Source: Shigella phage Sf23. From it: a stretch of DNA of 64,000 bases. The stretch lies in the sequence record MF158046, one strand, 5' to 3'. Below are positions 57,373 to 57,871 of this stretch, one piece after another. Within the stretch, counting starts at the first letter, position 1; every line of letters begins with the position of its first letter. Made by a program: the position numbers and the translations under genes. The notes beneath the pieces were generated by a model. That model was given only the letters and a program-made list of their open reading frames with translations. It was not told the origin of the DNA and did not search any database.

Positions 57373-57420
57373 AATAGTATCACTACCTCATCAGTGTGTA
57401 AACAACTTTGTGAAATTATT
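57373..57420 (-). promoter_or_regulatory. early-type promoter upstream of ipI-locus gene
   Basis: Same sequence family as the 57020 copy (GGTAATAGTATCACTAC...GTGTAAACAACTTTGTGAAATTATTTT). Confidence 0.5.
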
Positions 57421-57871
57421 TTAAATCGTCTGCCCAATCAAGCTTAAGAGGTTCTTTGTATTCACGATCTAATACGACCGGAATTTGTACATCACCGCTA
57501 AATGATAAGGGCCCAACATTATAAGACAATGTTATATGCGGCGTGTAATCGTCAAAATCATGTGTAGCACCTAGCGCCCGCGCATACATGTGTCGACAGC
57601 GCAGATATTCAGAATCTAGTACAAGTACAAGAGTAGATCCATCTTGTGTTTTCCATACTTCTAAATGTCCAGAAGAAGCTACTTCAAAACTTCCGCTTGA
57701 TGGAACATACGGAACATTTACTCTTGAATAACATATAGTCGAATGAATTTTTTCTCTAGGAACTGGATTAGGAACACGTAAAGAGCGCTGAAGTTCTTCC
57801 AGCGCATCAAGTGTTAATTCTGAAAACTTAGCTGCTACATAAAGACCCGTTGAAAAGTCTTTAAATTCCAT
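57416..57871 (-). CDS. 57B: gp57B, 2H-phosphoesterase-fold protein (T4 57B = Acb1 anti-CBASS cyclic-nucleotide phosphodiesterase)
   Basis: 151 aa; two H-x-T/S motifs (HSTICY, HITLSY) typical of 2H phosphoesterases; position upstream of 57A. Confidence 0.7.

Follow-up and report, generated by a model that had tools for sequence, protein, structure and literature searches.

Orthologues of T4 acb1 and acb2 in a T4-like stretch of Shigella phage Sf23

The 57B and vs.4 genes

The window considered here is a stretch of 64,000 nucleotides from Shigella phage Sf23 (sequence record MF158046), and all coordinates refer to it. Gene 57B (57416..57871, minus strand) is an intact open reading frame of 151 amino acids with an ATG start, whose product is, by its identity to the T4 protein, a predicted 2H phosphoesterase for CBASS cyclic di- and trinucleotides (Acb1). 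An earlier note, made from the letters of the window, had pointed to paired H-x-T/S motifs in this gene and to its correspondence with T4 57B, and both observations hold. The product is identical to residues 2-152 of T4 gp57B at 151 of 151 positions (BLASTP, E = 2e-116). It matches the Pfam family Acb1 (PF23474) with 202.7 bits (E = 2.6e-60, cutoff 27 bits) over profile positions 1-144 of 144, as well as the crystal structure of the Acb1 protein of Erwinia phage FBB1 (7T26, E = 4e-62) with 68% identity across 142 aligned positions. The first catalytic motif, H43-S-T45, is encoded at 57737..57745 (minus strand; codons cat-tcg-act), the second, H112-I-T114, at 57530..57538 (minus strand; codons cat-ata-aca). 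They correspond to H44/T46 and H113/T115 of T4, respectively; the numbering is one below that of T4 because the start differs. We note that the protein contains five histidines, and two HxT/S motifs among five are weak evidence taken alone. At the nucleotide level, 12 codons differ from T4, of which 12 are synonymous and none is nonsynonymous, indicating strong purifying selection. The protein is found at an identity of at least 99% in 497 phage records (tblastn, GenBank). On the basis of these alignments 57B is assigned as a putative Acb1 cyclic-oligonucleotide phosphodiesterase, with its activity carried over from the T4 protein.

The second gene, vs.4 (46500..46766, minus strand), encodes a protein of 88 amino acids from an ATG with GAGGA upstream, and its likeness to T4 suggests a hexameric cyclic-dinucleotide sponge (Acb2). 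The earlier note had assigned an open reading frame at 46500..46802 to the vs.4 position. The position is correct, the coordinates are not: the first 12 codons of that reading frame are an artefact of mechanical calling, which opened the frame at the first TTG following a stop. For want of a ribosome-binding site, and because it abuts a TAG stop, the TTG at 46802 is rejected as a start. The ATG at 46766 agrees with the start in T4 and with the N-terminus of the crystallised protein (7UQ2). That T4 Vs.4 is the Acb2 sponge, as stated in the note, is established in the literature (Jenson et al. 2023, PMC10097602). The note had made the Acb2 call by synteny only; this qualification can be dropped, as the product is identical to T4 Vs.4 at 84 of 88 positions (95%) and the binding residues are kept. 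The product also matches the PDB entry 7UQ2 ('Vs.4', E = 1.4e-53), the Pfam family Acb2_Tad1_hairpin (PF24729; 70.6 bits, E = 1.2e-19, cutoff 27), and PHROG 717 (E = 6e-32), the family named for Vs.4 homologues by Jenson et al. 2023 (PMC10097602).

All five cyclic-dinucleotide contacts of Acb2 (Y8, H11, K23, R79, and F82) are kept in the window. The codon for Y8, a base-stacking ligand contact that is invariant among the homologues, lies at 46743..46745 (minus strand); the codon for F82, the second base-stacking contact and likewise kept with respect to T4, lies at 46521..46523 (minus strand). The hexamer-interface residues L29, F33, A66, A73, A77, and L60 are all as in T4. D61 and T68 are also kept, hence the second pocket for cyclic trinucleotides, of the R67/T74 type described for Pseudomonas phage PaMx33, is not found. 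The presence of D61/T68 in place of R67/T74 excludes the trinucleotide-binding subtype, not membership in Acb2. Direct sequence identity and the retained binding residues, beyond synteny, thus identify vs.4 as a putative Acb2, with binding carried over from T4.

The four amino-acid differences between the window protein and T4 Vs.4 (L44F, N46S, C50D, and F52L) all fall in one variable patch, codons 44-52 (46611..46637, minus strand). Compared with the T4 gene there are 12 synonymous and 4 amino-acid changes, the latter within nine codons. For comparison across the family, 46 loci with relatives of Vs.4 were fetched from viral contigs and 42 distinct sequences were aligned. Y8, H11, and K23 are invariant in 42 of 42 homologues, and R79 and F82 in all full-length ones. 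Residues of approximately 37-65 are hypervariable in sequence and length across the 42 homologues, and all four substitutions lie in this segment. None of the four substitutions affects a published contact or interface residue. The exact allele of the window occurs in other Tequatroviruses, such as the phages Shinka and slur04, and 62 records match it at 99% or more. Three of 44 Vs.4 homologues (loci L046, L048, and L049) look truncated or frameshifted, with 26 amino acids, 74 amino acids, and an altered C-terminus without R79/F82, respectively. These could be cases of natural Acb2 loss of the kind proposed under Panoptes pressure; sequencing errors may also explain them.

Gene neighbourhood and the window as a whole

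Upstream of 57B lies the gene of the tail-fibre chaperone 57A (57871..58113, minus strand; Pfam GP57, E = 5e-51), whose TAA stop shares one base with the ATG of 57B (TAATG). The junction differs from T4, where both genes overlap by 4 nt (ATGA) instead of 1 nt. The same base change that turns the annotated T4 start of 57B from ATG to ATA also makes the stop of 57A a TAA. The arrangement suggests that 57B is probably translationally coupled to and co-transcribed with 57A. At the other locus, vs.5 (46759..46980, minus strand) encodes 73 amino acids in the window versus 58 in T4, and it overlaps the start of vs.4 by 8 nt, whereas in T4 the two genes are separated by a gap of 36 nt. As in T4, 57B and vs.4 each sit in an extended series of genes on the minus strand. 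Scans for consensus promoters and terminators around both genes gave no enrichment over shuffled sequences (11 versus 10.4 expected, 8 versus 8.6), and within these scans no obvious promoter of its own was found for either gene. The only sites that stand out are of the T4-early-like form TTTACA-17-TACTAT and are located downstream of 57B, ahead of ip5 and trna.4. The T4-like layout of the operons is the sole basis on which both genes are taken to be expressed.

The window as a whole is closely related to T4-like coliphages. Hundreds of Tequatrovirus genomes match at 97-100% identity (megablast with the two noted regions and a 25-kb stretch), the closest relatives being the Escherichia phages vB_EcoM-Sa45lw, ECML-363, AR1, wV7, and RB51; among the records searched, none matches the 25-kb stretch with full identity. 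When 119 annotated T4 proteins were compared gene by gene with the window (tblastn), the stretch from srh to gene 2 proved collinear with T4, and the core genes are mostly 97-100% identical. The differences from T4 are mosaic and of a typical kind: the window is without seg/mob homing endonucleases, dam, and b-gt, and carries other internal proteins. Specifically, none of the T4 homing-endonuclease genes of the interval (segF, segA, mobB, mobC, I-TevII, mobD, and segB) has a tblastn match in the window, and neither has dam. The spacing from nrdG to gene 49 is only ~1.8 kb, which corresponds to an nrdD without interruption. In place of T4 b-gt and segA, a gene of the beta-glucosyl-HMC-alpha-glucosyltransferase type is found (8559..9401, minus strand; 280 amino acids; phrog_842, E = 6e-89; Pfam TAGT), a replacement that implies a T2/T6-style DNA glucosylation. 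A cluster at 54719..55549 (minus strand) consists of 10 tRNA genes (Arg, Asn, Tyr, Met, Thr, Ser, Pro, Gly, Leu, and Gln). Those for Asn, Tyr, and Met are also carried by T2, and neither the annotated tRNA-Ile of T4 nor segB, which T4 has within its cluster, was found in the window.

Several further genes are related to counter-defence. The earlier note had described the window as dense in such functions, naming dmd, sp, pin, a macro domain, and the internal proteins. With respect to the first four the description stands: dmd, sp, pin, and the macro-domain gene tk.4 are present, with identities to T4 of 100%, 93%, 96%, and 58%, respectively (tblastn). With respect to the internal proteins it has to be modified, as IPI of T4 has no match in the window. 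The product of tk.4 (44353..44817, minus strand) matches Pfam Macro (E = 1e-7); next to its 58% identity to T4 Tk.4, the neighbours on either side, vs and tk.3, reach 96-97% identity. In the window, this putative gene for ADP-ribose processing is present as an allele that diverges locally.

The T4 ipI product is an internal protein with an anti-restriction role that targets the GmrSD enzyme. In the window the ipI slot adjoining 57B is filled by Ip5 (57085..57342, minus strand; 85 amino acids), which is 95% identical to T2 ip5. IpIV (48360..48833, minus strand; 157 amino acids, Pfam DUF7412), 99% identical to T2 ipIV, is found in place of ipII/ipIII. The set of internal proteins hence appears T2-like, not T4-like. 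An additional open reading frame of 157 amino acids, located between e.8 and the tRNA cluster (53855..54328, minus strand), has the N-terminus MKSYTQFLNEA, which resembles the capsid-targeting leader MKTYQEFIAEA of T4 internal proteins. It matches phrog_2280 (unknown function) only and no Pfam family, and may encode a further packaged internal protein. Finally, an extra open reading frame of 118 amino acids that is absent from T4 is located between 61.1 and 61.2 (3680..4036, minus strand). Its Pfam match is to the C-terminal half of AdfA (anti-DarT factor A, E = 9e-8); it also shares 34% identity with the C-terminal half of the 61.2 protein of the window, and 331 phage records contain it. It looks like a diverged half-copy adjoining adfA.

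Predicted function and alternative readings

The proteins of T4 provide the functional reference for both genes. As also stated in the earlier note, T4 57B has been characterised as Acb1 (Hobbs et al. 2022, PMC9117128). T4 gp57B is the founding member of the family; fractionation guided by activity identified it as the infected-cell enzyme that degrades 3'3'-cGAMP. Its catalytic tetrad consists of H44, T46, H113, and T115, and the mutant H44A/H113A is catalytically dead. The T4 enzyme cleaves 3'3'-cGAMP and cUA as well as cAAA, not cGG or 3'2'-cGAMP, and stops the activation of Cap4, an effector that responds to cAAG. The reaction is metal-independent and proceeds in two steps, with a cut 3' of adenosine via a cyclic phosphate intermediate. 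When acb1 is deleted from T4, infected cells show no cGAMP hydrolysis at all, and the phage has a >300-fold replication defect on CBASS-expressing E. coli (all PMC9117128). By analogy, the 57B product of Sf23 would be a small metal-independent 2H phosphoesterase that uses its HxT/HxT tetrad to cut CBASS signals at 3'-5' bonds located 3' of adenosine. Its substrates would include 3'3'-cGAMP, cUA, cAAA, and cAAG, not cGG and not 3'2'-cGAMP. By destruction of the signal, the CBASS effector proteins would never be turned on.

For Acb2, T4 Vs.4 is known to assemble as a hexamer; three cGAMP molecules are bound by it and withheld from the effector CapV (PMC10097602). Y8 and F82 stack on the ligand, and Y8, H11, K23, and R79 provide hydrogen bonds and salt bridges; L29, F33, A66, A73, and A77 build the hexamer interface, with L60 recovered in a screen. 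Y8A weakens the binding of cGAMP, and F82A cuts binding >25-fold (all PMC10097602). The T4 protein binds 3'3'-cGAMP with a KD of ~84 nM and binds neither cA3 nor cAAG (Cao et al., PMC10312549). The lack of cA3 and cAAG binding has been attributed to the missing equivalent of PaMx33 R67 (D61 in T4) and to a missing helix kink; a T4 D61R mutant is still without cA3 binding (PMC10312549). The vs.4 product of the window would accordingly be pictured as a helical-hairpin protein of 88 amino acids that assembles into a hexamer with three cyclic dinucleotides in pockets made by pairs of protomers. Y8 and F82 would stack on the bases, and H11, K23, and R79 would hold the ligand by hydrogen bonds and salt bridges. 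As D61 and T68 are kept, a dinucleotide-only sponge is expected, and the window protein, like that of T4, probably does not bind cyclic trinucleotides. Acb2 would sequester the signal and not degrade it, such that both proteins would complement each other: Acb1 would degrade adenosine-containing di- and trinucleotides, Acb2 would sequester dinucleotides. The biochemical activities assigned to both proteins in Sf23 derive from experiments on the T4 proteins.

It is known that Acb2, by binding the decoy 2',3'-c-di-AMP, triggers the Panoptes system OptSE, and that Y8 is required (PMC12657218). Y8A abolishes the activation of Panoptes, and the escaper F82C binds less. The Acb2 allele of T2 is without the Y8 region, which has been read as an escape from Panoptes (PMC12657218). 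A lesion of the T2 type in the Y8 region was looked for in vs.4 of the window and is absent. Since Y8 and F82 are intact, Sf23 is predicted to be sensitive to Panoptes.

Three other readings of these genes have been considered. A first one takes 57B as an RNA ligase, or a LigT-like 2'-5' RNA ligase, that acts in RNA repair and not against CBASS, in line with labels in RefSeq and PHROGs: many records of the 57B orthologue are annotated as 'RNA ligase', phrog_755 is described by the same term, and the 2H fold is common to 57B and LigT. The shared fold is, in fact, the origin of the label, and the label is older than the work on T4 Acb1. Moreover, the match of 57B to the Pfam family 2_5_RNA_ligase2 (PF13563) is partial and below the cutoff (13 bits, E = 0.11, cutoff 27), versus 202.7 bits for Acb1, and a T4 protein identical to 57B was purified by its activity as a cGAMP-degrading enzyme, the loss of which sensitises T4 to CBASS (PMC9117128). 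With a LigT-type profile under the Pfam threshold and T4 experiments that assign the function directly, we reject this reading, which we consider hardly credible. Equally hard to credit is a decay of one or both genes into remnants without expression or function. Natural loss-of-function alleles of acb2 do exist, namely the N-terminal lesion of T2 and the truncated homologues. However, both reading frames of the window are full length and have the start context of T4, 57B has accumulated only synonymous changes, and vs.4 retains every functional residue. Intact reading frames together with this pattern of substitutions exclude pseudogenisation.

The third reading concerns the variable patch of Acb2. 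Here the ligand spectrum of the window protein, or its surface for interaction with the host, would be shifted from that of T4, for example towards a reduced capture of the 2',3'-c-di-AMP decoy with CBASS signals still bound. The four changes are packed in nine codons and the other 12 nucleotide differences in vs.4 are synonymous; the Panoptes study describes phages as pressed to retune or lose Acb2, with the loss of the Y8 region in T2 as an instance (PMC12657218), and an apparent truncation is seen in 3 of the 44 viral-contig homologues. Against this, none of the positions 44, 46, 50, and 52 is a published contact or interface residue (PMC10097602), and all four are within the segment 37-65 that varies freely across the family, a pattern in keeping with an exposed hairpin tip on which constraint is relaxed. 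Also, the allele is common (the 62 records noted above), and T4-like relatives are generally restricted by Panoptes. We regard such a shift as improbable. A more specific version, in which L44F/N46S/C50D/F52L constitute a naturally retuned allele and the exposed hairpin tip would shift which ligands are preferred or how a host sensor recognises the protein (an escape from Panoptes with CBASS inhibition kept would be one such case), is slightly less probable again; its positive support consists of the clustering, within a segment that is variable throughout the family.

The preferred reading, to which we assign a probability of about 0.95, is that the window represents a stretch of a Tequatrovirus, a T4-like coliphage, with the two anti-CBASS genes that are standard in its genus. 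Both anti-CBASS genes are ordinary intact orthologues of characterised genes whose biology is already known. The significance beyond a correct annotation is therefore small, both being core and well-studied counter-defence genes of T4-like phages. Nonetheless, most public records still carry 'RNA ligase' or 'hypothetical' as the label of the Acb1 orthologue and 'hypothetical' as that of Acb2, and recognising both improves annotation. An intact Acb2 also predicts resistance to cyclic-dinucleotide CBASS together with vulnerability to the Panoptes decoy, which is relevant for the choice of therapeutic phages.

Comparison with characterised Acb1 and Acb2 proteins

The closest characterised relative of 57B is T4 gp57B (Acb1; NP_049750.1; PF23474), which shares the same 151 residues and the same HxT/HxT tetrad. 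The genomic context is likewise shared: 57B follows gene 1 and 57A and precedes the slot for an internal protein, with the order 1-57A-57B-ip conserved. Apart from the 57A junction described above, two differences are found. The annotated first ATG of the T4 gene is ATA in the window, such that the window protein begins at T4 residue 2, and the downstream gene is ip5 in the window, whereas it is ipI in T4. Acb1 of FBB1 (PDB 7T26/7T27) shares with 57B the catalytic tetrad and the lid region at the C-terminus, but it is an orthologue from another host genus and serves as a structural reference for the family only.

The counterpart of the vs.4 product is T4 Vs.4 (Acb2; NP_049728.1; PDB 7UQ2; PF24729; PHROG 717), which has the same length of 88 amino acids and the same place between vs.3 and vs.5. 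Both proteins agree in all cGAMP contacts, in the hexamer interface, and in D61/T68 at the vestigial trinucleotide site. A more distant relative is Acb2 of PaMx33 (p26; PDB 8H2J, 8IXZ, and others; PMC10312549), which matches the window protein weakly (E ~0.02); for T4 and PaMx33 Acb2 an identity of 24% has been reported (Cao et al., PMC10312549). The fold family and the logic of the dinucleotide pocket are the same, with Y11/K26 of PaMx33 corresponding to Y8/K23 here. In contrast to the T4 type, which has D61 at the position of R67, the PaMx33 protein also binds cA3 and cAAG via R67/T74.
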